Positions 662 to 26,886 of a stretch of DNA of 42,087 nt are shown here, piece after piece. Within the stretch, counting starts at the first letter, position 1, and each line of letters opens with the position of its first letter. The stretch is from a virus. The notes below the pieces were generated by a model. That model saw only the letters and a list, made by a program, of their open reading frames with translations, ran no database searches and had not been told where the DNA came from. The translations under genes were made by a program, and so were the position numbers. Location: UHGV virus genome UHGV-1352645; one strand, written 5' to 3'.

Positions 662-693
662 TTACCATAAAGGTAAACTTACCAAAAAGGTAA
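662..693. promoter_or_regulatory. Putative OR operators: tandem TTACCATAAAGGTAA (662-676) and TTACCAAAAAGGTAA (679-693) between the repressor and cro-like genes; weaker half-sites at 633-637 and 709-723
   Basis: Two 15-bp palindromes 2 nt apart sit just upstream of a sigma70-like rightward promoter (-35 TTGATT 700-705, -10 ATAATC 723-728). Confidence 0.55.
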
Positions 694-762
694 CAGTCAT
701 TGATTTTTACACCAGATTGGTAATAATCAGGCTGTCTAAAGTTAGTCCGGGACTAAAAAAAT

Positions 763-996
763 ATGAGCGATGTGCAAAAATTTGACTTCAAACGCTGCTG
801 GCTCGACCTCTCTCCGGCAGAGCGTGAAGAGTTCGCAAGTGACGCCGGCACGACCAGCCACTACATTCAGGTTCACCTGACTGGTCGTAGAAGAATTCCA
901 CGTAAACCTCTGTTAGAAAGACTGTTTAAAGCCTGCAAATCCCGTAAGTGGATCTCCGCAAAATCCGACCTGGTCCTCTGGTTCCACGAACGTTAA
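763..996 (+). CDS. Cro/YdaS-like HTH regulator
   Basis: 77-aa protein with the motif TTSHYIQVHLTGRRRIPRKPL typical of the YdaS/Cro-like family. It is divergent from the repressor gene. Confidence 0.5.
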   Translation: MSDVQKFDFKRCWLDLSPAEREEFASDAGTTSHYIQVHLTGRRRIPRKPLLERLFKACKSRKWISAKSDLVLWFHER

Positions 997-1142
997 TCCT
1001 CAAAACTCACCCGCGCCGCCACCCCCAGGCGGCTCCTGCCTCTCCCTGAATACCAATCCGGTAATAATTATCCAAATACGGTTGATCTTTTTTTGGCTTG
1101 CTGCAAAATTACCAAAGACAAATGCAGAAAGAGGGCAAGTCG

Positions 1143-1346
1143 ATGAAGCGAATTACCCAGCGAGAGGCCATTGAGCAGGGGCTCACTCGGTTCTACACAG
1201 GGAAGACGTGTAAGCATGGCCATGACAGCGAGCGATACACCATCAGCGGCGAGTGCGTTACGTGCAATAACGAGCGCGCGCGCCGGCAGGCGCAGATGAG
1301 ATCAGAGCGTCTGAAAGCAGCCAGAAAGGCCAGGGAGGCAGCATGA
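1143..1346 (+). CDS. Small CxxC...CxxC zinc-finger protein (ORF track extends upstream to 1098)
   Basis: ATG at 1143 is preceded by a GAGGG Shine-Dalgarno. The product has CKHGH...CVTC cysteine pairs. Confidence 0.3.
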   Translation: MKRITQREAIEQGLTRFYTGKTCKHGHDSERYTISGECVTCNNERARRQAQMRSERLKAARKAREAA

Positions 1347-1373
1347 CGCCTTCAGCTTATATGGGGGTGCAGG

Positions 1374-2144
1374 ATGGCCAGTAGCTGGATAAAAGTCGAG
1401 GTGATCACACCAGACAAGCCTGAGATTTTCCAGATAGCGGAAATCCTGAATATCGACCCCGATGCGGTACTCGGTAAGCTCGTTCGCATATGGGCATGGG
1501 CGGATCAGCAGACTGTTGACGGTAACGCTGGCAGCGTTACAAAAGGAGTGCTTGACCGTATCGCTTTTATTACAGGATTCGCTGATGCACTGATCGCTGT
1601 TGGTTGGCTCGCTTACGACGGCAACAAGCTTATTCTCCCCAACTTTGAGCGACATAATGGGGAAAGCTCTAAAAAACGGGCACTTACAAACAGAAGGGTT
1701 GCAGCACACCGCAAAAATGAAACGCAGAAAGTAACGCTGGCTGCGTTACAAAAAGCGTTACCAGAGGAAGAGGAAGAGGAAGAGGAAGAAGTAAAAGATA
1801 AGATCCCCCCTAACCCCCCAAGGGGGAGGGAGCCAAAAAAATCTTATCCGTATCCTGAACAGCTCAATGCCGAAGCCTGGGATGAGTGGAAGGCCTACAG
1901 GTCAGAAATGCGGTTTAAAGCCTACGCGCCAACTGAACGGAGCGAGGGCGCAGCAATCACCGAACTGATTAACCTGTCTGGCGGCAACCACACACGGCAG
2001 ATGCAGATTGTGAAGCAGAGCATGGCGAAGGGTTGGAAAGGGCTGTTCGAGCTGAAAGGCGGCTCTGGGCAGCGAGATGTGAACACCATATCCCGTCCGG
2101 ACACCGAGATCCCGCCGGGATTCAGGGGCGGACCGGCGCCCTGA
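1374..2144 (+). CDS. Putative replication initiator / replisome organiser-like protein with an internal acidic (E8) linker
   Basis: 256-aa ORF in the position of lambda O. Its N-terminal region (WIKVEV...GKLVRIWAWADQQTVDGN) is reminiscent of phage replication organiser N-domains. The gene contains two copies of the palindrome GTAACGCTGGCWGCGTTAC and a GAGGAA x4 run. Confidence 0.3.
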   Translation: MASSWIKVEVITPDKPEIFQIAEILNIDPDAVLGKLVRIWAWADQQTVDGNAGSVTKGVLDRIAFITGFADALIAVGWLAYDGNKLILPNFERHNGESSKKRALTNRRVAAHRKNETQKVTLAALQKALPEEEEEEEEEVKDKIPPNPPRGREPKKSYPYPEQLNAEAWDEWKAYRSEMRFKAYAPTERSEGAAITELINLSGGNHTRQMQIVKQSMAKGWKGLFELKGGSGQRDVNTISRPDTEIPPGFRGGPAP

Positions 2145-5988: not shown

Positions 5989-5998
5989 CGTGTTACTA

Positions 5999-6013
5999 TT
6001 ACCTAAAAGGTAA
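5999..6013. promoter_or_regulatory. TTACCTAAAAGGTAA palindrome upstream of the terminase operon
   Basis: Exact motif instance between the terminator and the small terminase start. Confidence 0.5.
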
Positions 6014-6033
6014 TTATTTTCGGGGTGTTTACC

Positions 6034-6618
6034 ATGCCAAAGGATCCGAAGCGCAAATCAACTCAGTACAAACCGTTGACGGTGATGCAGGAAGCCTACG
6101 CCCAGGAGTATGTGAAATGCCCTGAAAATCAGACGCAGGCGGCCATCAATGCCGGGTTCTCCCCAAAGTCTGCCCACGTCAAAGCCAGCACAATGATGCG
6201 TGATGAGCGTATCCAGAAACGAATCGCTGAGCTCATGGAGGAGCGCAACAAGCGCCTGCGCGTCAGTGCCGATTACGTGCTGCTGCGCCTGGTGGAAATC
6301 GACCAGATGGACGTGCTGGATATCCTGAACGACGACGGCAGCCTGAAGCCTATCCGCGAGTGGCCGAAAATCTGGCGAACCACGCTAAGCGGCTTTGATC
6401 TTTCCTCAACCATCATGAACATGGATGAGACCTCGATAGAGACCATCCTCAAGAAAATCAAATGGCCCGACAAGGTGAAAAACCTCGAGCTTATCGGTAA
6501 GCACGTTGACGTTAACGCGTTCAAAGAGCGCATGGAAGTTAACGTGAACGTTACCATTGCCGATCGCATGGCCGCCGCCCGGCGCCGCCTGAAAGAGCGT
6601 CAGGGTGGTGACCAGTGA
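6034..6618 (+). CDS. Terminase small subunit (Terminase_2-like)
   Basis: N-terminal LTVMQEAYAQEY...QTQAAINAGFSPKSA motif. It overlaps the large subunit start (GTGA). Confidence 0.6.
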   Translation: MPKDPKRKSTQYKPLTVMQEAYAQEYVKCPENQTQAAINAGFSPKSAHVKASTMMRDERIQKRIAELMEERNKRLRVSADYVLLRLVEIDQMDVLDILNDDGSLKPIREWPKIWRTTLSGFDLSSTIMNMDETSIETILKKIKWPDKVKNLELIGKHVDVNAFKERMEVNVNVTIADRMAAARRRLKERQGGDQ

Positions 6619-8093
6619 CAGACGCCGCTTTATCCCCGGAAGAACAGCTGATCGAAGATATCGCCAGCTTCACCCATGACCCGCTGGGCTATGCGCTGTA
6701 TGCGTTCCCGTGGGGCGAGGATGGCACCGAACTGGCGCACGCCTCCGGGCCGCGACAGTGGCAGGCTGACGCATTCCGCGAGATAGGCGAGCACCTGCAG
6801 AATCCCGCGACTCGTCATCAGCCGCTGATGATTTCCCGCGCATCCGGCCACGGCATCGGCAAATCTGCGTTCATATCGATGCTGATTAACTGGGCCATGT
6901 CCACCTGTGAAGATTGCAAGGTGGTGGTGACCGCTAACACCGACAACCAGCTGCGCACGAAGACCTGGCCGGAAATCATCAAATGGTCGAACCTGGCTAT
7001 CACGAAAGAGTGGTTCACCTGCACCGCCACTGCGATGTACAGCAACGATCCTGGACACGACAAACGCTGGCGCGCCGATGCTATTCCCTGGTCTGAGCAC
7101 AACACCGAGGCGTTTGCAGGCCTGCACAACGAGCGTAAGCGCATCGTTGTGGTGTTCGACGAAGCATCCAACATCGCGGATCTGGTCTGGGAGGTTGCCG
7201 AGGGCGCGCTGACGGACGAAGACACCGAAATCATCTGGGTGGCGTTCGGTAACCCGACGCGCAACACCGGGCGATTCCGTGAGTGCTTCCGCAAGTACCG
7301 GCACCGCTGGAAATGCGCGCAAATCGACAGCCGAACCGTCGAAGGCACGAACAAAGAGCAGCTCCAGAAATGGGTGGATGACTACGGCGAGGACAGCGAC
7401 TTTGTGAAGGTCCGCGTGCGGGGGATCTTCCCGGATGCGTCAGAAAACCAGTTCATTCCGTCTGGACTGACACAACCAGCCGTGGGCAGAGTGATAACTC
7501 CTGCGCAGGTTCAGCATGCTGCTGTGGTTCTTGGTGTCGACCCGTCACACCAGGGCAAAGACCCGGCAGTTATTTACCTCAGGCAGGGTTTGCATTGTAA
7601 AAAGCTTGGAGAGTGGCAACGAACCACTGATGACGTGTGGTTTGCTAAGGTGATCGCAGACTTTGAAGACCAGTACCAGGCGGATGCCGTATTTATTGAT
7701 TATGGCTATGGTACCGGCCTTAAATCAGTTGGTGATAACTGGGGGCGTTCCTGGACGCTAATTCAGTTTGGTGGCGGAACATCTGATCCCGAGATGGGGA
7801 ATAAGCGCGGCGAGATGTACAAATCTGCCCGCGATGCGCTGAAACTCGGGGCGCAACTCGACAGCCAGGATTTAGCCGACGAACTGAGCGCACCGGAGTA
7901 CAAAGTGCGCTTGAAAGACAGCCGGAAGATTTTGCAGGAAAAGGACGAAGTTAAGGAGTTGCTGGGGCGCTCGCCGAACAATGCCGACGCCTATGTGCTC
8001 ACCTATGCATTCCCGGTGACGAAGAAACAATTCAACTATGGGCAGCAAAGCCAGCAGCCCAACGTGATCAGCGAGTACGACCCATACGCATGA
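6615..8093 (+). CDS. Terminase large subunit
   Basis: 492 aa with a Walker A-like GHGIGKS and nuclease-domain acidic residues. Position and coupling with the small subunit fit. Confidence 0.8.
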   Translation: MTDAALSPEEQLIEDIASFTHDPLGYALYAFPWGEDGTELAHASGPRQWQADAFREIGEHLQNPATRHQPLMISRASGHGIGKSAFISMLINWAMSTCEDCKVVVTANTDNQLRTKTWPEIIKWSNLAITKEWFTCTATAMYSNDPGHDKRWRADAIPWSEHNTEAFAGLHNERKRIVVVFDEASNIADLVWEVAEGALTDEDTEIIWVAFGNPTRNTGRFRECFRKYRHRWKCAQIDSRTVEGTNKEQLQKWVDDYGEDSDFVKVRVRGIFPDASENQFIPSGLTQPAVGRVITPAQVQHAAVVLGVDPSHQGKDPAVIYLRQGLHCKKLGEWQRTTDDVWFAKVIADFEDQYQADAVFIDYGYGTGLKSVGDNWGRSWTLIQFGGGTSDPEMGNKRGEMYKSARDALKLGAQLDSQDLADELSAPEYKVRLKDSRKILQEKDEVKELLGRSPNNADAYVLTYAFPVTKKQFNYGQQSQQPNVISEYDPYA

Positions 8094-8136: not shown

Positions 8137-8508
8137 TTATTTTTCGCTCAGTCTCTGCTTCAGCAGGTAACCTTCCAGCATCCAGATTTTATTTACCGCA
8201 TTTTCACGGGCAATCTTGCGCCCGATTTCAGGGTCGAAGTTTTCAGGACTGGCGCAGGCGCTTTCACCGGTGACGGTGAAGCCGTTGCGCAGCACCAGGA
8301 CGCAGAACGTCAGCAGAGAAAGTGATTCGTGCGGCTGGTAGTTTACCTCTCCGCCAGTATGTTTCGCTTTTATGGCTACGCCAAAGGCACCATCTTCTGC
8401 TGTGAAATATGCTTCCTGAGCAATGATGCTTTCGATGTGGGCAGGCGTAACTCGCGGCGCCGTTAAGCCTTTAGCCTGAATTTCAGATTCAATGTCTTTG
8501 TCACTCAT
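8137..8508 (-). CDS. Phage_gp49_66-family protein (N4 gp49 / Sf6 gp66-like)
   Basis: 123-aa protein with the motif GLTAPRVTPAHIESIIAQEAY...NGFTVTGESACASPENFDPEIGRKIA. Confidence 0.4.
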   Translation of the reverse strand: MSDKDIESEIQAKGLTAPRVTPAHIESIIAQEAYFTAEDGAFGVAIKAKHTGGEVNYQPHESLSLLTFCVLVLRNGFTVTGESACASPENFDPEIGRKIARENAVNKIWMLEGYLLKQRLSEK

Positions 8509-8520
8509 AGTCTAATCTCA

Positions 8521-8672
8521 CCTTAAAAAAATGCCCGGCGAACCGGGCGAAACAGGGATGATGGAAAGTGCCGTCCATGGCTGGGTGTCACAGGGTTTAC
8601 AGCATGAAGTCATCGCAATGGCGTCCTGCTGTAAAAAGGGCGGTGGTCAGAAAGGGAATAACTGCCACCGCC
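8521..8672 (-). terminator. Two leftward rho-independent terminators (hairpins 8530-8547 and 8638-8672, each followed by a T-run on the minus strand)
   Basis: On the minus strand the sequence reads GCCCGGTTCGCCGGGC TTTTTTT and GGCGGTGG...CCACCGCC CTTTTTAC. No ORF lies upstream of them. Confidence 0.4.
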
Positions 8673-9351
8673 AAACTTGCCTGGAACTACGGGTATCACG
8701 GTCCTGAGGCGTGATTGGGTTGTGGTGGCCGGCGCTGATCTCCGGCTTAGTGACGATAGGCGTATTGCGACGCCTCGTTTTACATCTTGTCCGAATTGCC
8801 GAACTCTATAACCTTCCAGGAATGGTTATATGGCTTTATCGGTCTTGCCAGCGCCCTAAGTGATGCTCACGCATTATCTGACAAGTTCTCGTTCACCTGA
8901 TTAGCGCATCAGCCTGCGCATTCACCACAACGGAAAGAGCACTGCGGCGGAATCGAACCGCATCTGCATAAGCCGCATTTCCCAGATATGCTACTTACAA
9001 TGCCCTTACCTGTTGTGAAGGTTTGCAGAGGACGCATTAACACGGCACTTTGGCTCGTCTCCATTTCTGGAGGGTCGCAAGCATTTCACTCTGCTCAGCT
9101 TGCTGTCTTAAATATCCTCGTCTCTTCCGAGGTGTCACACCGTACCGCCACGATGGTGAGTCGCTGTCGTGCATGCAGGGCATGGCTTTCACATTCCGGC
9201 TACCCGCTGGGCCATGTACCAAGGAGCCCTCGGACCGCTATCGGCGCATGTGCCATACGCCGGATGCTTTCACACCTGGAAGCGCACTCCGCCATCTGAG
9301 TAACGACAAAGCCACCAATGGAAGGGAGTGGGGTGCGCTTTCATGTTGTGT

Positions 9352-9366
9352 TTACCAAAAAGGTAA
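9352..9366. promoter_or_regulatory. TTACCAAAAAGGTAA palindrome upstream of the structural operon
   Basis: Exact motif instance about 90 nt before the gp6.7-like gene. Confidence 0.5.
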
Positions 9367-9457
9367 TAATTTATCGTCAAAAGGTCAATACACTACGACA
9401 AATAAATCATATGTGGTTAAATTGGTAATAATTTAAACGCGTATGGAGCGCAGCAAA

Positions 9458-9661
9458 ATGTGCATCAGCAAGCCGAAAGTGAGTTCTCCGCAGGTTCAGG
9501 CGGCGCCGCAGGTTTCCGATTCTGCTGTACAGAACGCCGCCGATAGCGATCGTCGTCGCCGTGCCGCAGCGGGCGGGCAGAAATCAACAATCCTGACGTC
9601 GAGCCAGGGTGTAACGCAGCCTTCTGGCGGTACTCAGGGTAAGACCCTGCTCGGGGCGTAA
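9458..9661 (+). CDS. T7 gp6.7-like small virion protein
   Basis: N-terminus MCISKPKV resembles T7 gp6.7 (MCFSPKIK), with low-complexity Q/S/A-rich composition. GGAGCG Shine-Dalgarno; the track ORF starts at 9443. Confidence 0.4.
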   Translation: MCISKPKVSSPQVQAAPQVSDSAVQNAADSDRRRRAAAGGQKSTILTSSQGVTQPSGGTQGKTLLGA

Positions 9662-9664
9662 TCC

Positions 9665-11344
9665 ATGGCCGAACTCTCTCCGAAACAGCATTACCTCAAA
9701 CACCTGGGGCAGCTCAAAAATGAGCGCACCAGCTTTGAGGAGCACTGGCGCGAACTGGCGGAATTTATTGATCCGCGCAGCACGCGCTTTCTTACGACGG
9801 AGAGAAACAACGGCAGCAAGCGTAATACCCGCATCGTTGACCCTACCGCCTCCAAAGCTGCCCGCACTCTGCAATCAGGCATGCTGTCAGGTATCACCAG
9901 CCCAACCCGCCCATGGTTTAAGCTGGCAACGCCGGATCCGGAGATGATGCAATATGGACCGGTAAAACGCTGGCTTGATGTGGTCATGACCAGGATGAAC
10001 GACGTCATGAACCGCTCTAACGTCTACCAGTCCCTGCCGATTATCTACCGGCACCTTGGTGTTTTTGGTACCGCGGCTATGGCGGTTCTCGAAGACGACG
10101 AAGATGTGATTCGTACTCATCCTCTGCCGATCGGAAGTTACTACCTGTCAAACTCGCATCGTTTGTCAGTCGATACCACGTATCGCGTTTTCTCCATGAC
10201 TGCCCGCCAGATTGTTATGCAGTTTGGCCTGGACAATGTCAGTAACGCCGTGCGCGGCGCCTGGGATAACGCGAACTATGAAGCATGGTTCGATGTGGTC
10301 CATCTGACAGAGCCCAATATCGATCGTGTGAATGGCAAGCTGAACTCCCGCAACAAGGCATTCAAATCGGTGTATTTCGAGTTGTCCGGAGACGGTGACA
10401 AGCTCCTTCGTGAGGCTGGTTTTGATGAGCCGCCTATCCTTTCACCGCGCTGGGAGATTAACGGGGAGGACGTTTACGGGAGCAACTGCCCGGGAATGAT
10501 GGCGCTCGGTACTGGTAAGGCGCTGCAGCTGGAGCAAATTCGCAAAGCTAACGCGATCGATAAGCTTGTTAACCCGCCAATGGTGGCCCCGACAGGTCTT
10601 AAAAATAAGCTGATCAACCTTGCCCCTGGCGGAGTTACTTATGTCGATGAGGTTGATGCTACCAAGCTAGTGCGTCCGGCTTACGCCGTCAGCCCGCAGC
10701 TTAATGACATGCTCGGCAGCATTGCTGATGATCGCCAAATGATTGAAGCCTGCTTCTTCTCTGACCTGTTTAACCTGTTCAGCACCATCAACACCAGGAG
10801 CATGCCAGTGGAAGCTGTGGCCGCAATGCAGGATGAGAAACTCCTGCAGCTTGGTCCAGTCCTGGAGCGACTTAATGATGAATTCCTTGATCCTTTCGTT
10901 GATCGCACATTCAACATCATGGCGCGCCGCAACCTCTTTCCTGAGCCACCGGAAGAACTACAGGGCACTCCTCTGAAAGTTGAATATGTCTCCATTTTGG
11001 CACAGGCCCAAAAATCCATAGGGATCAGCAGCGTTGAGCGCTTTGTTGGCTTTGTTGGGAATCTTGCAAAAGCCAATCCTGCGGCGCTCGACAAACTCAA
11101 TATCGACCAGACGATTGACGAGTACGGAAATATGCTCGGCGTCCCGGCCACGATCGTTAACTCTGATGATGAGGTGCAAGCTACGCGCGAGCAGCGTGCT
11201 CAAATGGAGCAACAGCAGCAGATGATGGCTATGGCCCAGCAAGCTGGCGCAACCGCTAAGACCCTGAGCGATACCAACACCGCTGACCCTAGCCTGTTAA
11301 AAACCCTCTCTGATGCTGCTCAGCAGCCGGCGGTGACGCAATGA
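9665..11344 (+). CDS. Portal (head-to-tail connector) protein, T7 gp8-like
   Basis: 559 aa with a C-terminal Q-rich tail (EQQQQMMAMAQQAGA) as in T7 gp8. Gene order matches T7. Confidence 0.8.
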   Translation: MAELSPKQHYLKHLGQLKNERTSFEEHWRELAEFIDPRSTRFLTTERNNGSKRNTRIVDPTASKAARTLQSGMLSGITSPTRPWFKLATPDPEMMQYGPVKRWLDVVMTRMNDVMNRSNVYQSLPIIYRHLGVFGTAAMAVLEDDEDVIRTHPLPIGSYYLSNSHRLSVDTTYRVFSMTARQIVMQFGLDNVSNAVRGAWDNANYEAWFDVVHLTEPNIDRVNGKLNSRNKAFKSVYFELSGDGDKLLREAGFDEPPILSPRWEINGEDVYGSNCPGMMALGTGKALQLEQIRKANAIDKLVNPPMVAPTGLKNKLINLAPGGVTYVDEVDATKLVRPAYAVSPQLNDMLGSIADDRQMIEACFFSDLFNLFSTINTRSMPVEAVAAMQDEKLLQLGPVLERLNDEFLDPFVDRTFNIMARRNLFPEPPEELQGTPLKVEYVSILAQAQKSIGISSVERFVGFVGNLAKANPAALDKLNIDQTIDEYGNMLGVPATIVNSDDEVQATREQRAQMEQQQQMMAMAQQAGATAKTLSDTNTADPSLLKTLSDAAQQPAVTQ

Positions 11345-26466: not shown

Positions 26467-26711
26467 AGTGACCTCCTTGAATTATCTGTTGGATGAACAT
26501 TGTACCTAAAGCATACACTGGCTGGCAAAAAAAACAGCAGTTGAAAGAAATAGTGAACATAATAATTCATATATGGATTGATTTTGTGTTTTAATACGCC
26601 ATATATTACCTTTGTGGTAAATTTACATCGCCTAAACCTTGTGCCATAGTGATCGGGCATCGGCAAAATCCGGTGCCGGGATTGGCGTCCCGGATTGCTA
26701 AACGGCGCACA

Positions 26712-26735
26712 ACACGCGCATTGCGTGTTTTTTTG
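26712..26735 (+). terminator. Terminator-like hairpin ACACGC-GCATT-GCGTGT plus T7 in the leader upstream of ant
   Basis: Inverted repeat plus T-run about 150 nt before the ant ATG. Confidence 0.35.
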
Positions 26736-26886
26736 TGCACGCGCTTTGTCGCACCTATCAATGGTGGGCTGGGCGGGGGTCCGAAAGGACGCCGGTATCC
26801 GTTTAGGCCGGTACGCCAACTCCGTTCAGTTCACCACCAGTAATTGGCGTTGCGGTGGTGATAACTCTACTAAGCGGGGTATCACA

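Follow-up and report, generated by a model that had tools for sequence, protein, structure and literature searches.

The gene-free region and its neighbours

The DNA analysed here, referred to below as the window, is the whole of the viral genome UHGV-1352645 (42,087 nucleotides), and the element under study is the segment 8509-9440. A preliminary description of the sequence had seen no credible protein gene in it and had proposed a genome terminus or terminal repeat, a replication origin or a noncoding RNA locus. As that description stated, the region follows the packaging genes: it lies 3' of them, with the terminase genes on its 5' side and the portal gene on its 3' side. Megablast matches of positions 8400-9500 among phage genomes were found in the epsilon15/phiV10 group (genus Uetakevirus; phages of Klebsiella, Escherichia and Salmonella), and by sequence similarity the source phage is an epsilon15/phiV10-type (Uetakevirus-like) temperate Klebsiella phage. 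The genes are ordered small terminase, large terminase, a gene of the Phage_gp49_66 family (the gp49-family gene), the region and then portal. Because of these relatives and of the terminase-then-portal order, the T7-like layout to which the locus had been compared is not applicable.

None of the open reading frames (ORFs) of 50-128 aa in the gap matched a Pfam family and, with one exception, none matched a PHROG family. The two longest (8988-9299 and 9050-9436) carry stops and frameshifts in relatives. A protein-coding gene or pseudogene in 8509-9440, including the frameshifted protein gene in homologous phages that the preliminary description had named as a finding against its proposal, was thus rejected for want of a Pfam family and because the ORFs are broken in relatives. 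The view that the region holds no credible protein gene is therefore borne out, save for one doubtful case. This is a plus-strand ORF of 58 aa (8531-8707), which matches phrog_4647 ('unknown function', E 2.6e-12) and is open in phiV10-type relatives. It overlies both terminators described below, its ATG lies inside a terminator stem and it is without a Shine-Dalgarno sequence; it is probably an artefact of annotation passed between records, and a small protein is doubtful.

The cassette slot and its RNA modules

The slot was compared among 45 IMG/VR loci with portal proteins 92-100% identical, 49 related loci in all with the window included; the region alignment comprised the window and two relatives, and a portal-protein search of genome contigs returned a single locus. 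Alignment to related phages, which the preliminary description had advised, revealed conserved flanks and a variable middle. Among the related loci, identity is about 90-99% both on the left (8509 to ~8716) and on the right (9114-9442), and the middle between these flanks exists in 33 distinct versions among the 49. In 22 of the 49 loci ARAGORN detected in the middle a minus-strand tRNA-Arg(TCT) (anticodon UCU), standing in place of the element termed here module B; in 27 loci, the window among them, the middle measures 0-905 nt and has no detectable tRNA. The exact 397-nt middle of the window occurs in no other locus of the 49; one locus (L056) is identical to the window over 8904-9113 and differs in the core. 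The tRNA-Arg and B share both the 5' junction (...CGUUGUG/G, the slash marking the joint) and the 3' junction (A-CCA-G/AAUCACG), and in its genomic position and flanks the B slot is that of a tRNA. The position of A and B is a cassette site: near-identical phages have there either tRNA-Arg(UCU) or one of many other tRNA-shaped or tRNA-like RNAs.

In the window, this site is occupied on the minus strand by a long imperfect hairpin, module A, directly followed by B, an element with the arms of a tRNA. B has an acceptor stem of 6 bp (GUGGUG/CACCAC), a D-like arm (GCGC-AGGCUGAU-GCGC), a T-like arm (GCCGG-AGAUCAGCG-CCGGC) and, at the position of the anticodon arm, a long stem enclosing a multi-hairpin insert of about 157 nt. 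The 24-bp palindrome noticed earlier at 8807-8830 is indeed present and constitutes one hairpin of this insert; other hairpins replace it in homologues. The loops of the D-like arm (GCUGAU) and of the T-like arm (AUCAGC) are complementary by Watson-Crick pairing and are conserved across genera. To avoid circularity, the set of B elements was anchored on the two loop motifs only and the acceptor stem was left free. This extraction yielded 174 distinct elements representing 92 distinct scaffolds, with 26-212 nt between the arms; an earlier one had included inserts down to 5 nt and whole elements of 56-220 nt. In the 92 scaffolds, 97.7% of cells are paired, compared to 89.0% in shuffled sets (0 of 500 shuffles reach the observed value) and 27-47% in slid ones. 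Double changes affect 5 of 6 acceptor pairs and, in the stems whose selection required pairing, 3 of 4 pairs (D stem) and 4 of 5 (T stem). The acceptor cells comprise 504 Watson-Crick, 24 G.U, 6 A.C and 18 other combinations.

The class of insert found in the window is shared by a Hafnia myovirus, by an Aeromonas phage, by one IMG/VR contig and by a Uetakevirus-like prophage of E. coli that has it in the same slot. Its consensus fold is a cloverleaf in which the stem at the anticodon position opens into several hairpins, some of them with compensatory changes. B matched no Rfam family, even in short permissive scans (a 331-nt search included); the permissive scans covered the region, B alone, minimal B elements and the P1 array described below. 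Two other identities were considered and rejected. As for a small ribozyme (hammerhead, pistol and others), a covarying stem closes the loop that contains the motif CUGAUG, and none of the ribozyme families of Rfam matched. As for an integron attC-like site, GTTGTGG does not fit GTTRRRY, no integron integrase was found and the strand-specific G.U pattern is that of an RNA.

Module A consists of CACAACAGGUAAGAGCAUUG, a variable part of 27-211 nt and then CAGUGCUCUUUCCGUUGUG. Among 51 distinct stems 96.8% of cells are paired, compared to 89.9% in shuffled and 34-60% in slid sets; changes on both sides were observed at 14 of 18 pairs, and a U.G wobble is conserved in 39 of the 51. The apical parts exist in 62 different versions, and T-loop-like hairpins are carried by 16 of 71 A elements (0.4 expected). 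In the window the variable apical part is 53 nt long and bears the T-loop-like hairpin GGTTCGATTCC (8959-8949), which gives a partial tRNA-Sec match of 14.7 bits; the T-arm-like segment reported in the preliminary description (GCGGTTCGATTCCGC, 8947-8961, minus strand) lies in this apical part. Folded alone, module A reaches -35 kcal/mol (z -3.44). It matched no Rfam family in permissive scans.

Upstream of A, beyond a spacer of unexceptional fold (z -1.16), the same strand carries a structured leader that is 81-99% conserved in relatives. RNAalifold on 13 relatives gave 37 pairs, 10 of them with double changes, and on the minus strand G.U outnumbers A.C by 53 to 3; a single pair, for instance, is represented by G.U in 7 sequences, by G-C in 5 and by C-G in 1. 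Rfam scans, permissive ones included, matched no family in the leader.

Downstream of B, a trailer hairpin, a first terminator (T1), an invariant hairpin and a second terminator (T2) are kept in 8/8 aligned relatives, whichever protein gene comes next, and the trailer hairpin is also found directly 3' of tRNA-Arg in relatives. T1 and T2 each combine a GC-rich hairpin with a U-run on the transcribed strand. The two leftward terminators of the preliminary description are thus genuine by their features and conserved in relatives; its statement that they had no upstream gene is in one respect mistaken, as the upstream genes are RNAs. A 52-nt block at 8586-8641 that contains the invariant hairpin is 100% identical in phiV10-type phages, the sequence around it being ~80% identical, and shows no covariation. 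T2 adjoins the Shine-Dalgarno sequence (8524-8517) of the gp49-family gene, and this junction of terminator and ribosome-binding site is conserved although the downstream accessory gene changes. Among examined loci (L001, L005, L192 and L193 included) the slot for that gene is swappable: it holds the gp49 family in the window, DUF2829 in MK422448, a 263-aa hypothetical protein in BUCT711, a 64-aa 'protease' in SPN1S and DUF551 in Tyrion.

By sequence comparison, then, 9345-8722 holds conserved RNA structure on the minus strand. Selection appears to act on RNA and not on duplex DNA, since G.U exceeds A.C on one strand in A, B and leader and since the changes are compensatory. The covariation and G.U excess over this interval, together with the tRNA-Arg found in the slot of relatives, come close to one of the early proposals, a leftward noncoding RNA or a tRNA-derived remnant. 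A DNA-level explanation would see in the arms boundary sequences or recombination hot spots that serve mosaicism, and in the interior decayed tRNA genes and junk. The hypervariable middle between near-invariant flanks and the presence of tRNA-like fragments agree with it, but double substitutions keep the pairing in A, B and leader, the wobble bias recorded above for each of these three is confined to one strand, and the loops are conserved across genera; we regard this explanation as improbable. The RNA and recombination views are compatible, as conserved scaffold arms would also promote the exchange of cassettes.

The unit begins at an AT-rich block (9352-9433) that is invariant in 10 Uetakeviruses. 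The TTACC-GGTAA site which the preliminary description had placed at 9352 does exist and is one of about ten: TTACC-N5-GGTAA(TAATT) occurs 12 times (~10 sites) in the window compared to 0.04 expected. Such sites precede operons: one is 25 nt from the small terminase gene, one stands before the portal operon, and others are 56 nt before isrK and 113 nt before a 1384-aa gene. Judged from its sequence and distribution, the motif is probably the operator of a phage regulator and not a genome end. A physical end, terminal repeat, pac site or replication origin in the region might have been expected from a long noncoding stretch beside the packaging genes, from its palindromes and from an AT-rich segment with repeated GGTAATAATT. 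This is most improbable: the relatives are Uetakeviruses and not T7-like, the region is internal in at least 45 related contigs and in linear phage records (2.5-3.3 kb in for phiV10, 3.5-4.1 kb for Tyrion), the window contains no second copy, the TTACC-N5-GGTAA motif is dispersed over several operons and, as regards an origin, there are no iterons and GGTAATAATT has only two copies.

A leftward start of transcription is expected in the AT-rich segment because the first leader helix begins near 9337. The candidate promoter there overlaps the palindrome at 9352-9366, and its -35 element reads TTGACA in other Uetakeviruses. A promoter-scan match at 9138-9111 was rejected, as it lacks conservation in relatives.

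Rfam scans had also been advised at the outset. In the window only isrK (78 bits, 26657-26733, plus strand) and the C4 antisense RNA (68 bits, 26757-26841, plus strand) reached gathering level; they are adjacent to each other and lie ~17 kb from the gene-free region. The pair suggests a P1/P7-type immunity (antirepressor control) RNA module in a Uetakevirus-like phage.

Table 1. Features of the gene-free region, its flanks and the operator-like sites of the window
Feature	Position	Strand	Basis or remark
Small terminase	6025-6618		Pfam Terminase_2
Large terminase	6615-8093		Next in gene order after small terminase
Leftward terminator after gp49-family gene	8116-8097	minus	Terminator scan
Phage_gp49_66-family gene	8137-8508	minus	Pfam PF13876, E 3.5e-35
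Terminator T2, GCCCGG-UUCG-CCGGGC + U7	8548-8525 (stem 8533-8548, U-run 8525-8531)	minus	Terminator scan
Hairpin UACAGCA...UGCUGUA (inverted repeat I1) between T1 and T2	8635-8596	minus	Invariant
Terminator T1	stem 8638-8672, U-run 8633-8637	minus	Compensatory stem changes in phiV10 type
DicF-like segment ending in T1	8685-8633	minus	Rfam DicF, sub-threshold
3' trailer hairpin AUCACG-CCUCAGGAC-CGUGAU	8715-8695	minus	Directly after tRNA/B slot; kept in 8/8 aligned relatives
Module B, 207-nt tRNA-shaped RNA	8928-8722	minus	Directly after A, in tRNA-Arg position of relatives
Module A, long imperfect hairpin	9017-8926 (5' arm 9017-8998, 3' arm 8944-8926)	minus
Variable spacer upstream of hairpin A	9018-9113	minus	100% shared only with locus L056
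Structured 5' leader	9345-9114	minus	Several hairpins with conserved loops, e.g. CGGCG-UAUGGCACAUG-CGCCG
Candidate leftward promoter	-35 TTGACC 9388-9383, -10 TACCTT 9365-9360, 17-nt gap	minus	Putative
Palindrome TTACCAAAAAGGTAA	9352-9366		Within AT-rich control region
GGTAATAATT, two copies	9362 and 9424		AT-rich control region
AT-rich control region	9352-9433	none	Separates leftward RNA unit from rightward portal operon
Small ORF before portal gene	~9458-9661	plus
Portal	9665-11344		Pfam Head-tail_con
TTACC-N5-GGTAA sites	657, 1050, 2183-2207, 2250, 5994-6018, 9352, 26601, 28099, 28511, 41972

Modules A and B in other genomes

Scanning IMG/VR with the 3' scaffold and, separately, with the D-like arm as query yielded at least 120 matching stretches each time. 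Part of the cassette is matched by 127 phage records, including P1, CUS-3/IME10, Pylas, Magnus and Stx2 phages; by type, the enterobacterial carriers comprise P1, lambdoid, epsilon15-like, N4-like and Vi1-like phages and siphoviruses. Matches also occur in 834 of 5426 complete E. coli genomes (15%), and PGAP annotates nothing beneath them. No description of A or B modules was found in the literature, by keyword or by sequence string; they may be among the 10,006 unnamed viral RNA motifs of a published catalogue (PMC10690425). B is a family of RNAs widespread in phages, and its annotation is absent from both RefSeq and Rfam.

P1 has A and B behind tRNA-Asn and tRNA-Thr, in an array of ~1.1 kb upstream of tciA. 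In the record OP279344 this array, between tRNA-Thr and tciA (680-1800, minus strand), is unannotated except that a 57-aa 'hypothetical protein' covers part of it; it contains at least three A-type hairpins, two B elements, one element resembling the small RNA (sRNA) STnc100 and further long hairpins. In phage Meifeng, B directly precedes tRNA-Arg and tRNA-Thr. In Klebsiella phage ZCKP8 (NC_071150), two tRNA-model matches (60 and 67 bits; 1846-1919 and 1926-1999, minus strand) lie directly downstream of B, and the record has, in place of these unannotated tRNAs, a 'hypothetical protein'. Weak 'tmRNA_permuted' matches of 25-26 bits (gathering threshold 47) were observed in P1 (2139-2244) and ZCKP8 (2287-2395), both on the minus strand and upstream of tRNA or A/B arrays; these segments may be a further type of tRNA-like module.

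Two cases bear on the DNA-level role considered above, and both speak for it. First, in CUS-3 the segment with A and B sits exactly between the annotated 'boundary sequences' bsq4 and bsq3 (GenBank CP000711), one on either side. Second, closely matching A modules are found in unrelated phages: in Klebsiella phage Pylas, an N4-like lytic Schitovirus, the A of the window recurs with 98% identity at 1501-1596, downstream of a tRNA array. The latter identity suggests that the RNA module was transferred horizontally on its own, and recently.

A model of the unit and its relation to known RNAs

Taking the structures, their strand, the exchange of cassettes and the distribution of the family together, we give a probability of roughly two in three to the reading that 8509-9440 is a leftward noncoding RNA unit in an accessory slot between the terminase and portal genes, with a swappable tRNA/B cassette. 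We infer its promoter, processing, stability and function largely by analogy. Transcription would start near 9355 in the AT-rich control region, under the operator-like palindrome, and the transcript would pass through the leader, then A, then B, continue through the trailer hairpin, the DicF-like segment with T1 and the invariant hairpin, and end at T2; read-through of T1 and T2 would allow expression of the gp49-family gene. As in tRNA precursors and rRNA processing stems, RNase III may cut in the ~18-bp stem of A, and as in tRNA precursors, B may be freed by RNase P and 3' trimming and persist as a stable RNA. A stabilising tRNA-like scaffold would be formed by the acceptor stem together with the two arms, D-like and T-like, and their kissing loops; the active part would be the variable insert, which would base-pair in trans or serve as a protein decoy, as has been proposed for the related prophage sRNAs STnc100 and PasD.

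Several observations weigh against this reading. The whole region has an unexceptional folding energy (z -0.96 for the minus and -2.24 for the plus strand), which does not discriminate between the strands, and no sigma-70 promoter passed a consensus scan on the minus strand near 9355. The kissing-loop positions of B are invariant by construction because they were used as search anchors, and the independent support for their pairing consists of nine C-to-U changes that keep G.U; only the acceptor statistics of B are unbiased, since the D and T stems were selected for being paired. Neither ARAGORN nor Rfam identifies B as a tRNA, tmRNA, YrlA or STnc100, and the term 'tRNA-shaped' accordingly refers to topology and position. 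Its T-like loop is no canonical T-loop, CCA is encoded in a minority of B copies (the 3' tail in the window is A-ACCC), and a tRNA on the same strand within 300 nt accompanies only 15% of B copies. Weak constraint could account for some of the variability of the insert.

The chief alternative is a role in cis only. Leader, A, B and terminators would then form a regulatory or processing leader of the downstream accessory gene, by processive antitermination, by attenuation or through processing signals for RNase P and RNase III that define the ends of mRNAs, and the insert would be functionless. In favour of this view, the gp49-family gene can be expressed only by read-through of T1 and T2, because T2 abuts its Shine-Dalgarno sequence, and a conserved structured leader lies directly downstream of the presumed start site. 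Other phages offer further support: the genes downstream are lysis genes in lambdoid phages, CUS-3 and IME10 having A and B in the interval from the Q antiterminator gene to the holin gene S, just after a hairpin-plus-U-run, and in Aeromonas phage 62AhydR11PP the small terminase gene is downstream of B. It is difficult to reconcile with the P1 array, in which several A and B modules stand in series among tRNAs, with the interchange of B and a genuine tRNA-Arg, with the retention of insert-class helices by compensatory change across unrelated phages and contexts, or with the reports of STnc100 and PasD as abundant Hfq-bound trans-acting sRNAs. We therefore consider a purely cis role unlikely.

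If the noncoding RNA unit is extended to a general principle, many enterobacterial phages might share a natural 'tRNA-scaffold display' system, in which a conserved tRNA-shaped body, matured as a tRNA is and with its two arms joined in a kissing-loop elbow, carries a rapidly exchanged hypervariable domain. This domain would be an arms-race module, for example a decoy for host defences that target RNA or tRNA or a regulator directed at the host, and A would be an RNase III-type companion with a second variable cargo. Such a system is speculative and rather unlikely. Should A and B be expressed and stable, they would constitute an unannotated class of tRNA-shaped RNA in P1, P22-like and Stx phages and in prophages of ~15% of complete E. 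coli genomes. Two prophage sRNAs that are poorly understood, STnc100 and PasD, would then be tied to tRNA mimicry, the 'boundary sequences' and many empty intergenic gaps of phage annotation would be explained, and there would be a testable hypothesis for how phages diversify a small RNA cargo, with inserts swapped at tRNA slots and in late-operon leaders. For the window itself, the genome-end idea is removed as a false lead and every feature listed in the preliminary description is explained.

The unit can be compared with several known systems. The T1 segment resembles DicF (RF00039) in a 5' single strand, the elements UUUGGCGG...CCGCCC, a U-run and its occurrence in a phage; the similarity lies mostly in the terminator hairpin, and the match on 8685-8638 (minus strand) reaches 22.2 bits compared to a gathering threshold of 48 (E 0.045 in a 1.4-kb search). 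The 'boundary sequences' of lambdoid phages of the HK620/CUS-3 type are a second parallel, as the A and B of CUS-3 sit in a recognised mosaic joint; however, a boundary sequence is a concept of recombination at the DNA level, whereas here the variable piece itself is a covarying RNA.

B resembles the phage tRNA-Arg(UCU) of Uetakeviruses in its slot, strand and junctions, in the A hairpin upstream and in the trailer and terminators downstream, and it resembles tRNA in general in having four arms with the acceptor stem stacked on the T stem. It differs in that the anticodon arm with its loop is missing and neither the T-loop nor the D-loop is canonical, and its 6-bp acceptor varies freely in sequence. 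ARAGORN called 0 tRNA genes in the window and the Rfam tRNA model gave no match at E<=10, so that B cannot decode; its identification as a tRNA was rejected, the cloverleaf being altered by a 157-nt domain in place of the anticodon arm. Like B, tmRNA and YrlA (bacterial Y RNA-like) join a tRNA-like acceptor/T-arm module to a large non-tRNA domain. The window contains neither an ARAGORN call nor an Rfam match for tmRNA and no tag reading frame. A variant form of B with a canonical T-loop matches tmRNA weakly (15.7 bits), and the YrlA and tmRNA scores are far below threshold. In the tRNA cluster of phage T4, stable 'species 1/2' RNAs are co-transcribed with phage tRNAs, and B is likened to them by description only. 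In the engineered tRNA scaffold of Ponchon and Dardel (2007), a foreign RNA reportedly replaces the anticodon arm and is processed and stabilised like a tRNA; that scaffold is synthetic, and a natural use of B in this way would be an analogy only.

STnc100 (RF02076) and PasD come closest. A preprint describes them as related, abundant, Hfq-bound prophage sRNAs near Q that have different seed regions and whose function is unresolved (bioRxiv 10.64898/2026.05.13.724894). Like B, they are borne by prophages or phages and often lie near the Q antiterminator gene. When the Rfam consensus line of STnc100 was set against the consensus of B, both architecture and prophage context agreed: the 5' side of a closing stem UGGUG/CACCA is followed by AAU and a hairpin, the interior varies, and a final hairpin (CCGG...CCGG) adjoins CACCA. 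B differs in its conserved, mutually complementary hairpin loops (AGGCUGAU, AGAUCAGCR), in having no terminator of its own and in its far more varied inserts of 5-170 nt, and the window gave no STnc100 match at the gathering threshold of 47 bits or even in the 331-nt search. A third element of the P1 array, which has an A hairpin upstream, matches STnc100 with 33.9 bits (below that threshold) and follows the plan UGGUG-AAU, hairpin, variable interior, hairpin CCGGG...CCCGG and CACCA. Because this element shares the plan of B and matches STnc100, and because STnc100 and PasD are themselves related prophage sRNAs, we file B, on sequence and architecture, as a sister family of STnc100/PasD, its closest known relatives.

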